The translations under genes and the position numbers were made by a program. Of a stretch of 64,000 bases of DNA, positions 107 through 10,866 are shown piece after piece. The notes below the pieces were generated by a model. It searched no databases. It worked only from the letters and a program-made list of their open reading frames with translations, and was not told the origin of the DNA. The stretch comes from Eubacteriales bacterium (GTDB taxonomy: Bacteria > Bacillota > Clostridia > Oscillospirales > CAG-272): positions 9,574-73,573 of the forward strand of contig JAZOWX010000065.1 in the NCBI GenBank assembly GCA_045659405.1, given 5' to 3'. Numbering within the stretch: the first letter of the stretch is position 1; each line of letters begins with the position of its first letter.

Positions 107-937
107 ATGAATCCTTGGTTAATAGTGGGACTTTCGTTGCTTGGCATTTTACTCATTCTCGCTTGTGTTTACGTCATTCTTATTAAGCCCGGCGCTCGCC
201 GCGGTGTGCTTGAAAAATTCCGTGGCTTCAAATACGCTCACAGAGGCTTACACAGCGAATCGGTGCCCGAAAACTCTCTTGAGGCATTCCGTCTTGCAGT
301 TGAGGGTGGCTTTGGAATAGAGCTTGACGTGCATACGGTAAAGGGCGGCGAAGTAGTTGTGTTCCACGACGCTACGCTTGACAGAATGGTAGGCAAATCG
401 GCAAGGCTGGTTGATTTTACAGCAGAGGAGCTTGGGCAGATGAAGCTTCTCGGCAGTGATGAAAAAATACCGACCTTCAGGGAGGTTTTGGAGCTTGTCG
501 GGGGCAAGGTGCCGCTCATTGTTGAGCTGAAGCACAACTCGGGCGAGAGCGGTGTTGCCAAGGCCACAGCAGAGCTTTTGCGCAGTTACAAGGGCGACTT
601 CGTAGTCGAGTCCTTTGACCCGTTTACGGTTGCTGAATTCGCAAAGGAAATGCCGGATGTTGGGCGTGGAATACTTGCTCAAAGGTATACGAACGATCCC
701 AAGCACCGTGGCTTTAAATTCTTCCTTGCAGAGAATCTTCTTATTAACCGAATATGCAATCCTGACTTTGTGGCATACCGCCACTCACACGCAGATATGT
801 TTTCATTCCGTGCGGTAAAGGCGCTTTTCAAGCCTGTGACCGTTGCGTGGACCGTGCGTTCACCCGAGGAGGAAAAGGCTGCATACGATAACGGATTTGA
901 TATGATTATATTTGAGAATTATATACCGGAAAAGTGA
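107..937 (+). CDS. Glycerophosphodiester phosphodiesterase (GDPD) family protein with N-terminal membrane anchor
   Basis: 276-aa ORF. Hydrophobic N-terminus (LIVGLSLLGILLILACVYVILI), then YAHRGLH, ENSLEAF, ELDVH and VVFHDATLDR motifs typical of the GlpQ/UgpQ fold. Confidence 0.85.
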   Translation: MNPWLIVGLSLLGILLILACVYVILIKPGARRGVLEKFRGFKYAHRGLHSESVPENSLEAFRLAVEGGFGIELDVHTVKGGEVVVFHDATLDRMVGKSARLVDFTAEELGQMKLLGSDEKIPTFREVLELVGGKVPLIVELKHNSGESGVAKATAELLRSYKGDFVVESFDPFTVAEFAKEMPDVGRGILAQRYTNDPKHRGFKFFLAENLLINRICNPDFVAYRHSHADMFSFRAVKALFKPVTVAWTVRSPEEEKAAYDNGFDMIIFENYIPEK

Positions 938-3353: not shown

Positions 3354-3740
3354 TCAAGCCTCGAATTTCGCATTGAGAAACTGCGCTACGGGCAGAAAGA
3401 CAAGCGAAAGTCCGCCCCAAAGCAGGCTGTAAAGTGGGCATATCTGCCCGAGAAAATTGAGCGGCATATTACTGTAATTCCACACGTTTTTCTTTAGTAT
3501 TATGTTGAATATCACACCGAAAATAAACTCAACCGTCGTCACCGACAGCGAGCACATCACAGCCTTATATATAAGCGGCTTTTCTCGGAACATATCGGCA
3601 ATAACCGAAAACGTGATAAAGCATATACCGCCTGCTATCATCATTGACCAGTGCGTTCTGCCACGCCATAGAAGCTCTACTATGGCATATCCCGTACCGC
3701 CGACTGCAAAAAATACGCAGTATTTCTTAACCTTTTTCAT
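3354..3740 (-). CDS. Small polytopic membrane protein (putative ABC-transporter type IV / CmpB-like family)
   Basis: I prefer the start at MKKVKKY (3740) inside ORF 3354..3830. Four hydrophobic segments. The YAIVELLWRGRTHWSMMIAGGICF motif resembles the PF06541-type family, from memory only. Confidence 0.55.
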   Translation of the reverse strand: MKKVKKYCVFFAVGGTGYAIVELLWRGRTHWSMMIAGGICFITFSVIADMFREKPLIYKAVMCSLSVTTVEFIFGVIFNIILKKNVWNYSNMPLNFLGQICPLYSLLWGGLSLVFLPVAQFLNAKFEA

Positions 3741-3827
3741 AAAATCACCCCGTTTTATTATTTGCGGTTTTCGGGGGTGATATTCGGGTGTCTGTGCCGA
3801 AAATAATTGCATCGGCGATATTGATTG

Positions 3828-3872
3828 CAAAAAGAGCTATGATGGGTAAAAAACTACCGTTTCATAGCTCTT
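3828..3872 (-). terminator. Intrinsic terminator after the GH-like gene
   Basis: AGAGCTATGA...TCATAGCTCT stem followed by a T-run on the minus strand. Confidence 0.65.
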
Positions 3873-3925
3873 TTCTGTTGTATTATTGTTTGGCTTTTGT
3901 TCGCTTTGCCGTTAATCTTGGCGAA

Positions 3926-5743
3926 TCAAAAATATGAAACCGATTTTAATTCTCCGGGCTCAAGAATAAATTCTCTTTTTTCCTTGCCGTTGTCAACTGT
4001 CGCAAAAATCTTACAGTCAAAATCGGTGTTAAGAAGATAAATTCTATCCCCTTTGTAAACCGAAAATCTTAACTTGTCGCCGCCGTAAACCTTGACGTCG
4101 GCTTCCTTGTGGCTGGCTATCATAAGCGCTCGTACTACGCTGCTGTAAGCTGCAAAGGCTGCCGTGCTCGGATAGTCGAGGCAGGTCATCAAAATTGCGT
4201 ATCCGTCGCCACATTTATTCTCGGTCATCCACGCATCCATCTCGGCGAGATCCTTTGGCGTGTATTCCAGTAGCGATTCGTTACAAAGCTTGCCCGTTTC
4301 GGCAACGATATTTCTCTCTATACGCGCGTAGTTCATATATCCCTCGGGGAACCAATCCATACAGAACGGGTACGTAACCCCGGGAACTATACTTTCAAGG
4401 AAGGTGTAGGTGCGGTTGGCGTGAACCGGATTTTTTGCATCAAGGTCGCATCCGAAAAGATCCGAAACCTTACCGTCGTGTATAAGCTTCATTTCGCCAT
4501 TGCGCTTTTCTGAGGTGTTAAGGTGCGCCGCTGTCATAAAGAGCTTTCCGCCGCCCTTAACGAAGCTTTTAAGATTTTCGTAAATCTCTTCGGCCATGGT
4601 ATTCCAGCCAACGAAAACGAGATAATCGTATTTCGCCATCACCTCATAGGGCGCTGTTGCGGGTATAATATCGTAAAGACCGTAGCCCGGGGCTCCGCTG
4701 AGGTCGTGGCTTCCGAAGTTGAGCATATTGCACCAAGAGCGTTTGTTACAGATGCTATCGAATATACGCCACATATATTCGGGGGAGGAAAAAGCGTAGT
4801 CGTCGTTGTTGTGGCAGTTCCACAGATGACCGCTCATTCTGAAAGGACTGTATCCATCAAGATTGCCCTGCACGAATGCAAACTTCACCTCGGGATTGCC
4901 GAACGGACGCTTGTCCTCTCTTATAAATTCACCGAATTCCTTTAAGAATTGACGGTATTCCTTGCAAATCGGGTGGTCATATCCGAGTCTTTTATCAAGA
5001 TAGGTATCCCGAGAGCAAACGTCCTCATTTCCGCTTTCCAGAACCAAAACGTTAGAGCCTGAAAGATATGCGTAACGATAAGCAATAGGTAAGCGCTTCA
5101 TTTTGAGCGGGTCAAGGTTTCTCGTTCCCGCATACCACTCGTGAGCCATATACGTGCCCCAGCGCTCCTTGCCGTTAGCTTTTGCTACACCGCGCGTCAA
5201 GGGAATCATAACCTCCGTGTCACCGCAAAGAGCTTCAAGGAATGGGAAATCACTCTGCTCCGCAATAGTGGAAATCATCGCCGAAGCCTCAATGGAAACC
5301 GTGGGAATGCTATCGTCATAGTAAACGTCGCTTATTGCCTCTTTCAGCTTTTCGGCAACGTATTTTTTTCCATCCGATAGCGTTTCGTGATCAAGCGTGT
5401 CAGGTCCATAATTGTGGACGGCGTACCAAGAGCCGATCTCGGCTCTGCATAAATTACAAAGGTAATATTTTCCTGCGATTTTCTTCATTTCGAGCGCAAT
5501 TTCACGGTCGAAGCCCATTTGTTCTTTGGTGCGACCTTGAAACGCGAAATAAATCTTGTTATCCGCAAGATACCTCGCCCACTCTTTAAAATAGTGAGGC
5601 TCTATCGCAACGCCGGATGAGTTAAAACGCATAAAGTTAAGTCCGTATGCTATTACGTTTTTATCAATCCACTACATAACCTCTTCGGGCTTAAAGCCGT
5701 GTCTGCCTATACGTATTCCGTGAAGAATTTCTTTTCCGTCCAT
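3926..5743 (-). pseudogene. Glycoside-hydrolase-like protein (TIM-barrel-like N-terminal part plus GH42-type trimerisation-like domain) interrupted by an in-frame TAG
   Basis: The intact 568-aa ORF is 3926..5632. The same frame continues upstream through WIDKNVIAYGLNF to a TAG at 5672..5674. Beyond that it reads MDGKEILHGIRIGRHGFKPEEVM from an ATG at 5741..5743, which is preceded by AAGGATGG. The function call is weak and rests on the segment YDYLVFVGWNTMAEEIYENLKSFVKGGGKLF. Confidence 0.5.
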
Positions 5744-5894
5744 TGTAGTCGCCCATCCTTTTGCGTTTTGAATTTGAATTTTTCGGATATTCTAAAAATA
5801 TTTCGAATTCCTTTTTTCGACTTTTATTATACAGTAAAAAGCCTTTGATTTCTATATTGCTACTGAAAATTAGAATTTTATTGCTGTTTATAAG

Positions 5895-5927
5895 AAAATC
5901 CTCTCACAGCGAGTAGAGAGGATTTTT
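5895..5927. terminator. Hairpin terminator distal to lysS
   Basis: AAAATCCTCTC-acagcgagta-GAGAGGATTTT, about 240 nt downstream of the lysS stop. Confidence 0.55.
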
Positions 5928-5951
5928 ATTGTGTGTATTAGGTACTTTAAA

Positions 5952-6022
5952 TCAAGCCTCCGGCTTCATTGTGAACTTGCCGGGGAGAATGAAGCTTATA
6001 CTTCAGGCTTCATTGTCGGGTA
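5952..6022 (-). repeat. Two ghost copies of the lysS 3' terminus
   Basis: Minus strand 6022..5996 reads TAC CCG ACA ATG AAG CCT GAA GTA TAA (YPTMKPEV*), followed by 22 nt of 3' UTR homology. Minus strand 5975..5952 reads TTC ACA ATG AAG CCG GAG GCT TGA (FTMKPEA*). The real lysS end is FPTMKPEV*. Confidence 0.9.
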
Positions 6023-6165
6023 GCAAGGCAAAAAGCTTCCTGTGGACGCTTTTTGGCGAAGCGAAACCGCCCATAGCAAGGAGCAAACAGAGCCGAGGCT
6101 TGCGTAGGAGAGAGTTTGCGACTATGCGAAGGTGGAGGGGATAAACTTGCTGGGGAAAATGAAGC

Positions 6166-7674
6166 TTATACTTCAGGCTTCATAGTCGGGAACAGAAGCA
6201 CGTCACGGATTGAAGCCGAATCTGTGAGGAGCATAACGAGTCTGTCAACACCGAAGCCGAGACCGCCTGTGGGGGGCATACCGTATTCGAGCGCTGTGAT
6301 GTAGTCGTAATCAACCTCGGCTGACGTGTTCGGGTCTTCGAGGCGCTTTTTAGCAACCTGATTTTCAAATCTCGCCTTCTGGTCGATGGGGTCGTTAAGC
6401 TCGGAGAATGCGTTTCCGAACTCGGTGCAGTTGATGAAATACTCGAATCTCTCTGTGAAGAGGGGATTCTCGGGCTTGCGCTTTGCAAGCGGGCTGTTTT
6501 CAACAGGGTAGTCGTAGATGAACGTGGGCTGTACGAGCTTGTCCTCAACGAAAGCGTCAAACAGCTCGACAAGAACAGTACCGCGTGTTGCATCAGCGGG
6601 AACTTCAACGTGGTGAAGCTTTGCAGCCGCTCTTGCATCCTCGTCGGATGCCCAGTCGTTGTAGTCGATTCCCGAATATTTCTTAACAGCCTCAACCATA
6701 GTAAGGCGCTCCCACTTGCCAAGGTCGATTTCAGTACCCTGGTAGGTGATTTTTGTGCCGCCGCAAACCTCGTTTGCAAGCTTCTTGTAAAGCTCCTCGA
6801 CAAGGTCCATCATTCCGTAGTAATCGGTGAATGCCTGATAAAGCTCAACCGAGGTGAACTCGGGGTTATGCTTTGTGTCCATACCCTCGTTTCTGAAAAT
6901 TCTGCCGACCTCGTATACCTTGTTCATACCGCCTACAATAAGGCGCTTGAGGTAAAGCTCGGTCTCGATACGAAGGTACATATCAATGTCAAGTGTGTTG
7001 TGATGAGTTACAAAAGGACGAGCCGATGCTCCGATTTCAAGGGGGAGAAGTATCGGTGTATCAACCTCAAGGAATCCCTTGCCGTCAAGATATTCACGGA
7101 TGCCCTTGAGTATCAGTGAACGCTTTACAAAGGTGTCCTTAACCTCGGGATTTACGATAAGGTCTACGTATCTTTGTCTGTATCTCTGTTCAAGATTTGT
7201 GAGTCCGTGAAACTTTTCAGGCAGCGGAAGCAAGGATTTTGCAAGCAAAACTATACTTTTTGCGTGTACGGAAACCTCGCCTGTCCTTGTTCTGAAGAGA
7301 ATACCCTCAACGCCGATGATGTCACCAACGTCCCATTTCTTGAAAGCGGCATAGTCCTCCTCGCCAACGTCATCACGTGCGACGTAAAGCTGAATCTTGC
7401 CGTCTGTGTCGAGCAGGTGAGCAAAGGAAGCCTTACCCATAATTCTGCGGCTTACCATTCTGCCCGCAACTCTTACGGTTATCTCCTCGCCCTCTGCGAG
7501 TGTCGCCTCACGGCTCTCAAATTCTTCAATAGCGCACTTTGCGGTATGCGTAGCATCGTACTTTGTTATCTCAAAGGGATTCTTGCCCGCATCTGTAAGT
7601 GCCGCAAGCTTCTCACGTCTTATCTGAAGCTCGCTTGTGGAATTGTATTCGTTAACGTTCTTATTTTCTGCCAT
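6166..7674 (-). CDS. lysS: Lysine--tRNA ligase (class II)
   Basis: 502-aa ORF with an OB-fold N-terminal region and class II core motifs (FRNEG, GMPPTGGLGFGVDRLVMLL). Confidence 0.97.
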   Translation of the reverse strand: MAENKNVNEYNSTSELQIRREKLAALTDAGKNPFEITKYDATHTAKCAIEEFESREATLAEGEEITVRVAGRMVSRRIMGKASFAHLLDTDGKIQLYVARDDVGEEDYAAFKKWDVGDIIGVEGILFRTRTGEVSVHAKSIVLLAKSLLPLPEKFHGLTNLEQRYRQRYVDLIVNPEVKDTFVKRSLILKGIREYLDGKGFLEVDTPILLPLEIGASARPFVTHHNTLDIDMYLRIETELYLKRLIVGGMNKVYEVGRIFRNEGMDTKHNPEFTSVELYQAFTDYYGMMDLVEELYKKLANEVCGGTKITYQGTEIDLGKWERLTMVEAVKKYSGIDYNDWASDEDARAAAKLHHVEVPADATRGTVLVELFDAFVEDKLVQPTFIYDYPVENSPLAKRKPENPLFTERFEYFINCTEFGNAFSELNDPIDQKARFENQVAKKRLEDPNTSAEVDYDYITALEYGMPPTGGLGFGVDRLVMLLTDSASIRDVLLFPTMKPEV

Positions 7675-7699
7675 AGAAAGTATCCGCCTCTCTTTATAG

Positions 7700-8182
7700 T
7701 CAAGCCTCTTTTGCTCTTGAAACGCTCTTTATGATGAGATGCTGCTCTCTGACACCCGAAACGACAACCTCGTCGCCTGCCGATGCACCGAGAAGAGCAA
7801 GTCCTATCGGGGAAGAATCCGAGATTTTTCCGTTCAAGGGGTCTGTCTCATAAGAGCCAACTATGTGATATACAAAATCCTTGTTTCTTTCAACGTTGTG
7901 AAGCTCAACGATAGAGCCAACGCTGATTTTGCTCTCGTCTATCTGCGACTCGTCAATGACCTTCGCATTTGCTATCATCTCACGAAGCTCGTCAATTCTT
8001 GCGTGGATTTTTCCCTGCTCCTGTTTAGCCTCGTCGTATTCGCTGTTTTCCGAAAGGTCACCGAATGCGCGCGCTGTGGAAATATCCTTCTTGTTTTCTT
8101 CTACCTTGACGTTTACAAGATAGTCAAGCTCGTCCTGAAGCGCCTTAAATCCGGCGGGGGTATATGTCTTTGATTCCGACAT
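7700..8182 (-). CDS. greA: Transcription elongation factor GreA
   Basis: 160-aa ORF. N-terminal coiled-coil with DLSENSEYDEAK, plus a GreA C-terminal domain. Confidence 0.95.
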   Translation of the reverse strand: MSESKTYTPAGFKALQDELDYLVNVKVEENKKDISTARAFGDLSENSEYDEAKQEQGKIHARIDELREMIANAKVIDESQIDESKISVGSIVELHNVERNKDFVYHIVGSYETDPLNGKISDSSPIGLALLGASAGDEVVVSGVREQHLIIKSVSRAKEA

Positions 8183-8258
8183 TTTTTGTTCTCCTCAACA
8201 GTTTATATATTTTTATTAAAATCAAATTTTATCAACAAAATGTGAATATATGTTTGCA

Positions 8259-9587
8259 TTAATTGGATATTTTTGCTAAAAGTTCGATTATAGCTGTGGC
8301 GAGCTGGCGGTCTGTACCGTCCGTGTTTTCTACAACGGTATCGGGTGTTATGCCCTCGCCGTGATAGTTCTCGCCAAGCGGTGTATAGTAGTAGGCAATA
8401 GTCATTGTAACAGAAGAGCCGTCGGTAAAGCCGAAGGTGGTCTGCATTATACCCTTGCCGTAGGTTACAGTACCGACAATGCACTCGTCAAGCAGTCCCA
8501 TCTGTCCGTAATCCCTGATTGCGGAGGTGAAAAGCTCTGCGGCGGATGCCGAGTACTGATTGCATAAAACAACGCAGGGCATACCGAGCGAATCGGGATT
8601 TTTCGTCTTTTCGAAAAAGGACATTCCTGCGTAGCTATATGACGTGATAGTCACGTTTTCGGGTACGAGATAGTCTATCATAGAGAGCGCTGCGTGAAGA
8701 TATCCGCCGCCGTTTGAGCGAAGGTCGAATATAACACCGACAGCACCGTTATCCTTTATGAAATCAAGCGCATCGCCAAACTGCAGGGCGGTGTTGTTTT
8801 TGAAAGAGGTTATCTGAATGTAACCTATATTGTCCTCAAGCATCTCGTAATATACGGTTTGCTCGGTAATCTTTGCTCTTGTTGCGATAAGGGTAAGCTC
8901 ATCCTCGCCTCTTTTGACGGTAACGCTTACCTGTGTGCCCTCGACACCCTTTATGGCGTTTGCCGTGCCGTCAAAGCCCAGCTCCTCTATCGACTTGCCG
9001 TCAACTCCGATTATATAGTCACCCGGTAAAAATCCTGCCGACTCGGCGGGCGAATCCTTCATTACCGAGGTTATAAGCATTGTTCCGTTGGTATAGTTGT
9101 GCTCTATTGTGACACCGATTCCGCAGAATTCACCGCTCATACCCTGGTCATATTCTTCATACTCATCGGGTGTGCGGTAAAATGCATAGTCGTCACCGAT
9201 AGCCGCAACGTAAGAATCCACGATAGCCGTGGTCACGTCGGTCATATTGGTGATATCGAGCTTGTCGTAGCGGTTATCAAGAAAATCGTATGCGACGGTC
9301 AGCGCCAGCTCGTAGGTGGAGGGAAGCTCCTCAACGTAGTATTTCTGAAATTTATCCTCAACCAGTATGAGCTTTGCCGATGAGTAATAGGTGAAGCCCC
9401 AGCGGCTAAGATACTGTGAAACGTATTTGTAAGCAGCCTCACCCTCGGCACTCTCGATATTTGCGTAGAGCTGCTCCTTTGGGGGCATCGGTTCTTTCTC
9501 GGGTAAGTTTAAATTGCACGAAAACAGAGCTGTCGACAGAGAAAGAACAATCACACACAAAATTGCGGTAAAAAGCTTCTTTTTCAT
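8259..9587 (-). CDS. S41 family C-terminal processing peptidase (lipoprotein, PDZ domain)
   Basis: 442-aa ORF. Signal and lipobox LFSC; PDZ segment (SPAESAGFLPGDYIIGVDG); catalytic context NQYSASAAELF and TYGKG. Confidence 0.9.
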   Translation of the reverse strand: MKKKLFTAILCVIVLSLSTALFSCNLNLPEKEPMPPKEQLYANIESAEGEAAYKYVSQYLSRWGFTYYSSAKLILVEDKFQKYYVEELPSTYELALTVAYDFLDNRYDKLDITNMTDVTTAIVDSYVAAIGDDYAFYRTPDEYEEYDQGMSGEFCGIGVTIEHNYTNGTMLITSVMKDSPAESAGFLPGDYIIGVDGKSIEELGFDGTANAIKGVEGTQVSVTVKRGEDELTLIATRAKITEQTVYYEMLEDNIGYIQITSFKNNTALQFGDALDFIKDNGAVGVIFDLRSNGGGYLHAALSMIDYLVPENVTITSYSYAGMSFFEKTKNPDSLGMPCVVLCNQYSASAAELFTSAIRDYGQMGLLDECIVGTVTYGKGIMQTTFGFTDGSSVTMTIAYYYTPLGENYHGEGITPDTVVENTDGTDRQLATAIIELLAKISN

Positions 9588-9771
9588 TGCTTTAATCCTT
9601 ATTTAAATTATAAATCCTCGTTTTGTGCAGTACATTTTTTAAGCCGTGAAAGCATTTTCGGTAAAGAGCCAAAGCGCTTTGCTTTTTCAATCCCGAATAC
9701 TTCACGGCAAATAAATATATGCTTTTATTTTTATCAGAATGATAGAAAATTATCAGATAGCTCGTCTATAT

Positions 9772-10866
9772 TCAGAACTTTGTAGGCTTGCTGGTAAGAT
9801 ATTTCTTAACCATAAGCGCAACCTTGAAGGTAACTGCGTGCTCGAATTCACGAAGGTCAAGTCCTGTAAGCTTTCTTATCTTTTCAAGTCTGTATACAAG
9901 CGTGTTTCTGTGAACGAAGAGCTTTCTTGAGGTTTCCGAAACGTTAAGGTTGTTTTCGAAGAAGCTCTGCACGGTCATAAGCGTTTCCTTATCGAGCGAC
10001 TCAAGCGAGCCCTTGTTGAACACCTCGCCAAGGAATATTTCGCAAAGCGTCGTTGGGAGCTGATATATAAGTCTGCCGATACCGAGGTTCTCATAGGACA
10101 TAGTGGTGCGCTCAATATCGAACACCTTTCCTACCTCGAGCGCAATTCTCGATTCCTTGTAAGCCATAGCGAGATTCTTAAGGTTGTCGACTATCGAGGA
10201 TATACCGATAAGCACCTTTCTGCCGTGTTCCTTTTCGATGCTCTTGGCAAGCTCCTTTGCAAACTTTTCAGCCGTCTCTGTATCCGAGCCCTTTTCAAGC
10301 TCCTTTACAACAACGACGTCAAGCTCGCTTATGCTGATAACGTAATCCTTGTTTTTGTCGTTTATGTATTCCAGAACAATCTCGTAGGGAACACCGTCGC
10401 CCTCGCTCTGGAATTTTATGTTGTATACCACGCGGCTTTCATCATTGCTGAAATGAAGCTCATTGGATTTGACGTATATATCGCTCGGAAGAATGTTGTC
10501 AAGAATGATGTTCTTCACAAACGAGCATTTGTCATATTTTTCATCATAAAGAACCTTGATGTTTCCAAGCGAGACAGAAAGCATCTGCGCCATTCTGTCG
10601 GTTTCCTTATCAACACCCTCGACAAACACGATTGTGTCAAGCTTTTGCGTGCCGCTTATTACAAATCTGTAAGTAAAGCCCTCAAGCGTGAGAGATGAGG
10701 TGGAGGAGGCATAAAGAAGCTCCTCTCTGATTCGCTGTCTTGATTCACCTATTCTGCCAAGCTCGCTGCAGGCTACGATGATACCGTTTTCATCTATAAC
10801 GCCCACAGTGCGGCCTATAACGTCGCGCATCTGGTGTATTACTGTTTGAAACAACCTGTTTGACAT
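9772..10866 (-). CDS. PucR/CdaR family transcriptional regulator
   Basis: 364-aa ORF with the C-terminal PucR-type HTH ETSRKLFVHRNTLVYRLEKIRKLTGLD. Confidence 0.85.
   Translation of the reverse strand: MSNRLFQTVIHQMRDVIGRTVGVIDENGIIVACSELGRIGESRQRIREELLYASSTSSLTLEGFTYRFVISGTQKLDTIVFVEGVDKETDRMAQMLSVSLGNIKVLYDEKYDKCSFVKNIILDNILPSDIYVKSNELHFSNDESRVVYNIKFQSEGDGVPYEIVLEYINDKNKDYVISISELDVVVVKELEKGSDTETAEKFAKELAKSIEKEHGRKVLIGISSIVDNLKNLAMAYKESRIALEVGKVFDIERTTMSYENLGIGRLIYQLPTTLCEIFLGEVFNKGSLESLDKETLMTVQSFFENNLNVSETSRKLFVHRNTLVYRLEKIRKLTGLDLREFEHAVTFKVALMVKKYLTSKPTKF

Follow-up and report, generated by a model that had tools for sequence, protein, structure and literature searches.

Former lysS 3′ ends behind a gene-less folded insert in an uncultured gut Clostridia lineage: a probable microCIME-like integration

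Why would an essential gene be trailed by further copies of its own last codons? The question is raised by lysS in a 64-kb stretch of DNA from an uncultured gut Clostridia lineage (the whole stretch is here called the window), where the stop codon of this lysyl-tRNA synthetase gene is followed by a short insert and by two displaced copies of the lysS 3′ end, hereafter ghost 1 and ghost 2. In our reading, to which we assign a probability of roughly 0.6, the lysS 3′ end has been the target of site-specific integration by a gene-less element resembling the microCIMEs (CIME: cis-mobilizable element), with a further round of integration and an internal deletion thereafter. The features on which the argument rests are as follows.

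6166..7674, minus strand: lysS, class II lysyl-tRNA synthetase, 502 aa, the target gene (open reading frame and translation)
6144..6190, minus strand: direct-repeat copy 1, an attL-like junction (att: attachment) comprising the last 8 codons and stop (6166-6190) and the spacer (6144-6165)
6020..6143, plus strand (the favoured folding strand, antisense to lysS): 124-nt insert, the core of which is a structured non-coding module of ~118 nt
6029..6055, no strand assigned: helix P1 of the module, a 12-bp A-run/T-run hairpin, AAAAAGC/GCTTTTT, terminator-like in both directions (inverted repeat, arms 6029-6040 and 6044-6055)
5974..6020, minus strand: direct-repeat copy 2, comprising ghost 1, PTMKPEV and stop (5996-6020), and the spacer copy (5974-5995)
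5952..5975, minus strand: ghost 2, the putative oldest lysS end, with a native-type flank (TTTAA...) after it
5895..5926, minus strand: native lysS terminator hairpin, AAAATCCTCTC..GAGAGGATTTT, a perfect 11-bp inverted repeat (-15.6 kcal/mol, z -6)

Displaced copies of the lysS end

Read on the minus strand, the working end of lysS is TTC CCG ACT ATG AAG CCT GAA GTA TAA (6192..6166), which encodes FPTMKPEV and a stop. It is followed by a 22-nt spacer, GCTTCATTTTCCCCAGCAAGTT (6165..6144), and by the 124-nt insert (6143..6020). Ghost 1 then reads TAC CCG ACA ATG AAG CCT GAA GTA TAA (6022..5996), its codons showing one synonymous difference from the working end, and is itself followed by a copy of the spacer (5995..5974) with 2 mismatches in 22. 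Ghost 2 reads TTC ACA ATG AAG CCG GAG GCT TGA (5975..5952; TMKPEA and stop) and, set against the working end, shows three synonymous changes, a V-to-A replacement and TGA instead of TAA as its stop; the CCG missing from it is better read as a left-hand truncation. A repeat search paired 5974-6020 with 6144-6190 as a direct repeat of 47 nt, 94% identical and with a spacing of 170. The repeat unit measures 170 bp, and the gene-less segment between the repeated lysS ends 146 nt. The 26-mer ATGAAGCCTGAAGTATAAGCTTCATT occurs exactly twice in the window and ACWATGAAGCCNGARG three times, exactly at the three lysS ends, against 0.00 expected in shuffles for either pattern. The flank downstream of ghost 2 opens with TTTAA, as does the flank after the single ghost of two close strains (L097 and L099; L numbers denote the loci compared). 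Together with the hairpin at 5895-5926, it matches the native flank and terminator of other strains by position, at low aligned identity.

The differences between working ends and ghosts fall where translation would tolerate them. Eight loci provide 11 real/ghost pairs with 33 differences in total. Of these, 27 occupy third codon positions, as do all of those within the first six codons (23/23); the rest affect the last residue, which varies between V, A and T, or the stop codon, which is either TAA or TGA. Frame and in-frame stop are intact in all ghosts, and the third-position bias has P = 9e-5 even if half of the changes are assumed to have fallen in a neutral copy. Divergence of this pattern indicates that each ghost evolved as a translated lysS end, not as a neutrally drifting copy; judged by its codons, each would once have been a working end of the gene. 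Synonymous-only divergence of this kind offers a simple means of telling att-type replacement and ordinary duplication apart by sequence. Divergence of the ends also rises with distance from lysS, both in the window and in an independent tandem case in a relative (L030).

An earlier note on this DNA had described the two displaced ends, the spacer behind ghost 1 with its two mismatches, and serial events with divergence growing away from the gene. These descriptions hold, the first through the repeat identity and the pattern counts given above and the last also in L030. The note offered no mechanism and took the insert as anonymous; the insert belongs to a conserved, structured family. The word "nested" does not fit, as the arrangement is serial. 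For ghost 2 the note was right about the different stop and wrong in counting two synonymous changes, there being three together with the V-to-A replacement. The hairpin that it placed after all the copies is real. That termination is found only there is doubtful, because the A-run/stem/T-run hairpin of the insert (P1, 6029-6055) could stop transcripts earlier; on folding predictions P1 may end lysS transcripts ahead of the ghosts. A simple terminator scan called neither P1 nor the 5895-5926 hairpin, because their T-runs sit inside the stems.

The gene itself and its surroundings are conventional. Homologues of lysS carry PF00152/PF01336, lysyl-tRNA synthetase being the name given in one source; greA lies upstream, and the neighbours in the window are housekeeping genes (greA, an S41 peptidase, methyltransferases). 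The best match of the window LysS among species representatives is 86%, and an exact look-up of its sequence found no identical protein on record.

The lysS end as an integration site in strains and relatives

Comparison of the lysS 3′ flank across strains, proposed earlier as a check, uncovered both empty and filled alleles among contigs whose LysS is 97-98% identical to that of the window. In the empty site (L096, L101, L102 and seven similar contigs), TAA runs straight into the native terminator. In the filled site (L097/L098, L099, L100), a 24-nt spacer, the module and one ghost precede the same terminator, so that the equivalent hairpin stands right after the stop in empty alleles and after the ghost in filled ones. 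Homologues of the window's spacer are present in L097, L099 and L100, whereas L096, L101 and L102 lack it. End repeats measure 24-27 nt in L097, L099, L100, L010, L011 and L007. L097 and L099 disagree at 11 of 1509 lysS positions, 9 of them within the final 35 nt. In the ghost they disagree at 3 of 25 positions, but across spacer and module at only about 4 of 150. Change between these two strains is concentrated at the two repeat copies.

Since insert and ghost recur in independent assemblies from other samples (L097/L098, which are identical, L099 and L100), they are not an assembly artefact. An assembly error or chimeric metagenome contig would have had to arise in four or more independent assemblies from this clade and again in three other genera, and we consider it extremely improbable. 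It draws on the extra 47-nt copy, which the assembly of the window alone shows and which contrasts with the insert and single ghost of the other strains.

In a species-level survey, the module was found at 4 of 80 lysS loci, scattered among module-less close relatives. At L007, L010 and L011, a homologous insert and then a ghost occupy the same place, L011 with two tandem copies. Larger inserts use the site as well. Ghosts are also present 1.0-3.0 kb past lysS at L025, at L047 and, as a series of two, at L030. The 1.4-kb insert of L025 carries a GH5 gene and that of L047 measures 1.6 kb; in L030, two inserts stand in tandem, and their ghosts, at +1054 and +3045, are each followed by a terminator copy, the one farther from lysS being the more diverged. 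No integrase was found in the inserts of these three loci, which carry a single cargo gene and have repeated 8-10-nt motifs near both ends. In every insert family, the lysS-end repeat starts at the Pro codon after TTC.

Several further observations concern the same gene end. In L048 (5453-9290), a truncated Phage_integrase gene (6238-7011, minus strand), an IrrE/M78 peptidase gene and zinc-ribbon genes come directly after lysS, with repeated GTTTTACCCCA motifs after the stop; the far end lies beyond the fetched flank. On its gene content, this looks like an integrase-bearing element at the lysS site. L008 (~5503) has a 15-nt mini-ghost, AAGCCTGAAGTATAA, one base after its real end ..AAGCCCGAAACATAA and no insert, which looks like a scar of imprecise loss or replacement. 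LysS orthologues at L018, L022, L040, L059 and L070 continue for ~150 aa after FPTMKPL, in an extension that resembles a tRNA-binding domain (P0011 is listed with PF01588); a domain has thus been fused to the same gene end that serves as integration site. In the empty-site strains L096, L101 and L102, the source annotation calls a 68-aa gene without a Pfam hit ~170-380 nt after the lysS stop, and the gene downstream of lysS has 483 aa against ~605 aa, so that downstream gene structure differs between strain groups. For annotation, ghosts and inserts should not be called small open reading frames; one strain set already has a 68-aa "gene" in the lysS 3′ flank.

Under microCIME-like integration, the lysS 3′ end would be an attachment site to which each incoming element brings its own copy of the last eight codons and stop. 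Recombination within the conserved ACN-ATG-AAR-CC would make the new copy the working lysS end and displace the old one as a ghost. In the window, ghost 2 (5952-5975) and the terminator at 5895-5926 would represent the oldest end. A gene-less unit of ~170 bp, comprising the 22-nt spacer, the 118-nt module and a lysS end copy, would then have arrived, and a second unit would have been gained by a second integration or by unequal crossing-over between repeats. Deletion of the older unit's module could finally have fused ghost 1 and its spacer (5974-6020) to ghost 2; a fusion of ..GCAAGTT to CACAATG.. would leave ghost 2 without its Pro codon. Because the element encodes nothing, integration and excision would depend on the recombinase of a larger element acting in trans, most likely a tyrosine integrase, as has been described for the CIMEs and microCIMEs of streptococci. 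If integration is reversible, the junction of the excised circle would read ..CTTGCTAC-CCNACNATGAARCC..TAA-GCTTCATT.

The folded module and its copies away from lysS

On the plus strand of the window, the module extends over ~118 nt from GTAGCAAG to ..GACTATGCGACGGTGGAG and is matched by a covariance model at 6020-6139 (+) with 111 bits (E 4e-24). The model found 18 copies in a first search and 6 more in later loci. The 64-kb window holds no second copy. Its helices are P1, the A-run/T-run hairpin; P2, CCGCC/GGUGG; P3, GCA/UGC; and P4, variable in sequence yet paired. The earlier note had called the insert rich in hairpins, and both of its examples correspond to helices, GCAAAC/GTTTGC to P4 and AAAAAGC/GCTTTTT to P1. 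The fold is supported by covariation: 94% of cells in the alignment are paired, against 34-57% with partners slid; 12 base pairs have changes on both sides; and the covariation score of 0.33 compares with 0.13 in shuffles and was reached by none of 500. P1 shows compensatory changes across copies and has -13.1 kcal/mol on the lysS-sense strand. The single-sequence minimum free energy structure of the window copy reproduces consensus P1-P4, with -38.9 kcal/mol on the plus strand against -30.1 on the minus, and G-U pairs also favour the plus strand (20 cells against 5).

The module does not code for protein, as its copies have in-frame stops and indels that are not multiples of three, which disposes of the reading frame NRPKQ..RAE..DYATVE. 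Rfam returned nothing for the window at gathering score, nothing for 5850-6250 at E<=10, and nothing at E<=1 for four loci with typical copies; BLAST of a typical module found nothing in plasmid or phage collections, and two exact-pattern scans of viral contigs gave no match. The 118-nt folded core is undescribed and matches no Rfam family.

A folded, non-coding insert between a gene and an in-frame copy of its end could be intron-like, or an antisense or 3′-untranslated-region regulatory RNA, with the ghost translated once the insert has been removed. The coding-type constraint on the in-frame ghosts and the covariation-supported fold would suit such an RNA, as would the 114-nt length, a multiple of three, of an insertion of the module into the DUF6809 gene described below. 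We nevertheless think it very unlikely, given that the favoured folding strand is antisense to lysS, that 118 nt is far below group I/II intron sizes with no Rfam match, that no splice restoring the conserved EKFHDCW of DUF6809 is apparent, and that the orientation of the module relative to the neighbouring gene is not constant.

Within the clade of the window, modules are 0.89-0.92 identical at a lysS four-fold divergence of 0.34-0.40, and the lysS-linked insert core evolves ~4 times more slowly than lysS four-fold sites. This level of identity implies that the module is under constraint or has spread recently. Constraint would also be expected if the module were an old, vertically inherited element of the 3′ flank, kept as an RNA for lysS or the cell, with its repeats made by local duplication, slippage or unequal crossing-over and with the empty strains having lost it through recombination between these repeats. 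That the window, L097 and L100 have the insert at one position and with homologous spacers agrees with this, as does a spacer length that stays constant at 24-25 nt across genera, and the 47-nt copy confined to the window could stem from unequal crossing-over. Inheritance of this kind is poorly reconciled with occurrence at only 4 of 80 species-level lysS loci, with the same module family in mobile-element genes and at tRNA ends, or with ghosts that, at a four-fold divergence of 0.35-0.55, should have many non-synonymous changes and indels and do not. We judge it quite unlikely.

A pattern scan of metagenome contigs yielded nine further true copies of the module, none adjoining lysS. The earlier note had reasoned that its reading would fall if the matches belonged to a widespread repeat unrelated to lysS; the module family does occur away from lysS, which bears this out in part, although the ghosts are lysS-derived. 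In L103 (6034-6459), the 3′ end of tRNA-Pro(GGG) is repeated (17 nt) 344 nt away, and the gene-less insert between the two holds a diverged module in the opposite orientation (63.6 bits). Beyond the tRNA ghost lies a large mobile element with a second module inside DUF6809, a small mobile-element gene. On sequence, L103 has the layout of a tandem accretion and would be a parallel case at a tRNA gene. In L089 (240-1319), a 43-nt repeat with the module occurs twice, 918 nt apart, around a TTGACA/TATAAT promoter and an open reading frame; read antisense, the 43 nt resemble the end of another gene (..DFAMSISKLW and stop). The module abuts tRNA fragments in L091 and L085, where ARAGORN finds no tRNA gene next to it.

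The DUF6809 gene offers filled alleles (L103 3437-3570 and L107 6151-6284) for comparison with L108-L111. Anchors that lie 13 nt apart in empty alleles are 127 nt apart in filled ones, a gain of 114; this anchor-based measure was used as a MAFFT alignment of empty and filled alleles misplaced the gap. In L084 and L087, divergence sets in within 0-12 nt past the module. The insertion takes the place of the KFHDC codons, and the first bases of the module supply a stop that yields a 56-aa product (ENYM and stop); proteins 56 aa long recur among the homologues found, the largest such cluster having 97 members. The last ~60 nt of the module read in frame into the intact C-terminal remainder, and a restart product is conceivable. 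Around the L107 copy (3600-10600) lie genes for AbiH, peptide deformylase, FRG, an AAA ATPase with DUF2201 and a 308-aa reverse transcriptase (RVT_1), in what looks like a defence-island stretch of a mobile element. The 22-25-nt spacer at lysS resembles DUF6809 sequence right of the insertion point (GCTGGGG), a match too short to be used. Elsewhere, L087 (154-315) has a 45-nt hairpin-rich insertion inside the variable P4 loop, and in L095 (134-949) the module directly follows a GDPD-like gene, supplying its last two codons and stop. A GDPD-family gene also stands at the start of the window (107-937).

Two ideas of how the module might recognize its targets were rejected. A variable P4 loop acting as a target-specific guide does not fit the finding of the same loop sequence in copies at different targets. 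The 8-nt module motif CATAGTCG pairs with the lysS codons CGACTATG in some copies; the motif is invariant at unrelated targets and synonymous variants break the pairing, so guide pairing is a lead only.

Not all of the evidence sits easily with integration at lysS by a microCIME-like element, and the following points weigh against it. The sharp GTAGCAAG end abuts nine different flanks, and the 114-nt insertion in DUF6809 is clean, with no flanking repeat; together, these suggest that the module may also move, or promote recombination, on its own. Module and ghost meet at the same nucleotide, within one base, in four genera, which random deletions would not produce, and compensatory changes with slow evolution are unlike what is expected of decayed att arms. 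Five of the nine L097/L099 differences near the end of lysS lie upstream of the repeat, so that they are not accounted for by a simple exchange of the working end with the ghost. No attP-bearing parent element with the module was found for lysS, and a crude motif scan of the window detected no integrase or recombinase.

The sharp end beside unrelated flanks, and the DUF6809 insertion with its empty alleles, would equally be expected if the module itself were mobile as a small non-autonomous element, spread by retroposition of an RNA or as DNA that a single-strand transposase moves, and had inserted antisense at the lysS stop. The ghost would then be a 24-47 nt target-site duplication made by staggered cuts. 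An RNA-like fold with a conserved G-U pair, the complementarity of the 8-nt motif CGACTATG to the adjacent antisense lysS flank and the reverse transcriptase near the L107 copy could be added in its favour. A mechanism that duplicates its target should have left a duplication in DUF6809, where there is none, so that long duplications are not regularly made; it should also pair one constrained with one neutral copy, whereas ghost and real ends differ in coding fashion. Moreover, unrelated module-less inserts of 1-2 kb give the same repeat from the same codon, the complementarity is broken by synonymous variants in most ghosts, and the module has no terminal inverted repeats or conserved target tetranucleotide. 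We regard independent transposition as unlikely to account for the lysS locus.

A bolder proposal, which we offer tentatively and consider rather unlikely, is that the 118-nt module is no debris but acts in cis as the signal by which a new class of tiny mobile units moves without a recombinase of its own. As a structured single-strand or RNA element, it would let units of 150-350 nt, with or without cargo, ride the integrases or other enzymes of larger elements into the 3′ ends of genes and tRNAs and into mobile-element genes, and ghosts would be kept translatable because integration is reversible. If the module is such a mobility signal, it would explain the persistence and spread of microCIME-like units, which published surveys have treated as decay products.

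Likeness to known systems

Replacement of a gene end by an incoming element has a precedent in icd of Escherichia coli, where the e14 element and phage 21 supply a replacement 3′ end of this essential gene, and where the displaced icd end persists as a partial copy with mainly synonymous differences. These elements are of prophage size with a duplicated segment of ~165 bp, in contrast to the gene-less mini-insert at lysS.

The size of the insert recalls MITE-like (miniature inverted-repeat transposable element) repeats such as ERIC, Correia, RPE and bcr1, which are structured sequences of ~120 nt in or next to genes and lack coding capacity. The module differs in having no terminal inverted repeats, no short target duplication and few copies per genome: its ends, GTAGCAAG.. 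and ..GGTGGAG, are not complementary, and the DUF6809 insertion has no duplication. Nor does it resemble the palindrome-associated transposable elements (PATEs) of IS200/IS605, since nine left flanks share no tetranucleotide and a hairpin is present near one end only. Integron cassettes are likewise recombinase-less units that collect in series at one site through a folded single-strand recombination signal. Unlike attC sites, the module shows no RYYYAAC/GTTRRRY boxes in the alignment, no integron integrase lies nearby, its fold is branched with conserved loops rather than a simple imperfect hairpin, and the target is a gene end, not attI. A diversity-generating retroelement was considered and set aside, as there is no reverse transcriptase among the window neighbours and the mismatches are T/A, T/C and A/G.

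Closer parallels come from elements that integrate at gene 3′ ends. In Streptococcus, tyrosine-integrase integrative and conjugative elements (ICEs) target the 3′ end of lysS (PMC4701971). They share with the window the gene, the end used, repeats over its last bases and a gene that stays intact; they span tens of kb with their own integrase and direct repeats of 13-17 bp, as opposed to the 24-47 nt repeats and absence of genes found here.

CIMEs and microCIMEs are described from S. salivarius and S. thermophilus (PMC7563491). In S. salivarius, both kinds are flanked by att sites and stand one behind another at the 3′ ends of rpmG, rpsI, fda and rplL; the CIMEs measure 1.2-13 kb and lack an integrase, and the microCIMEs, of 130-220 bp, carry no genes. 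The 1-2 kb cargo-bearing, integrase-less inserts of L025, L030 and L047 match classical CIMEs. The window matches the microCIMEs in its gene-less segment (146 nt between the repeats, against the published 130-220 bp), in direct repeats containing the 3′ end of a conserved housekeeping gene (the 47-nt repeat and a third end at 5952-5975), and in a serial arrangement with older copies farther away. MicroCIMEs derive by deletion from ICEs or from integrative and mobilizable elements (IMEs); the module is present in the mobile-element gene DUF6809 and in the tRNA-Pro mini-insert beside a large element, while no lysS-targeting parent element that carries it was found. The tRNA-Pro copy in L103 shows accretion with such a large element, whereas the window copy stands alone with none adjoining; single copies were beyond detection by the published microCIME screen (PMC7563491). 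The window differs further in its host, an uncultured gut Clostridia, in its site at lysS, and in a body that is a conserved folded 118-nt module, also free-standing elsewhere, rather than decayed DNA. An essential gene in these bacteria doubles as a landing pad for very small gene-less passengers, and the former ends stacked behind it keep a legible record of past integrations. Att-site duplication by integrating elements is a process already known, and its nearest named counterpart is the microCIME, here in a new lineage and at lysS.

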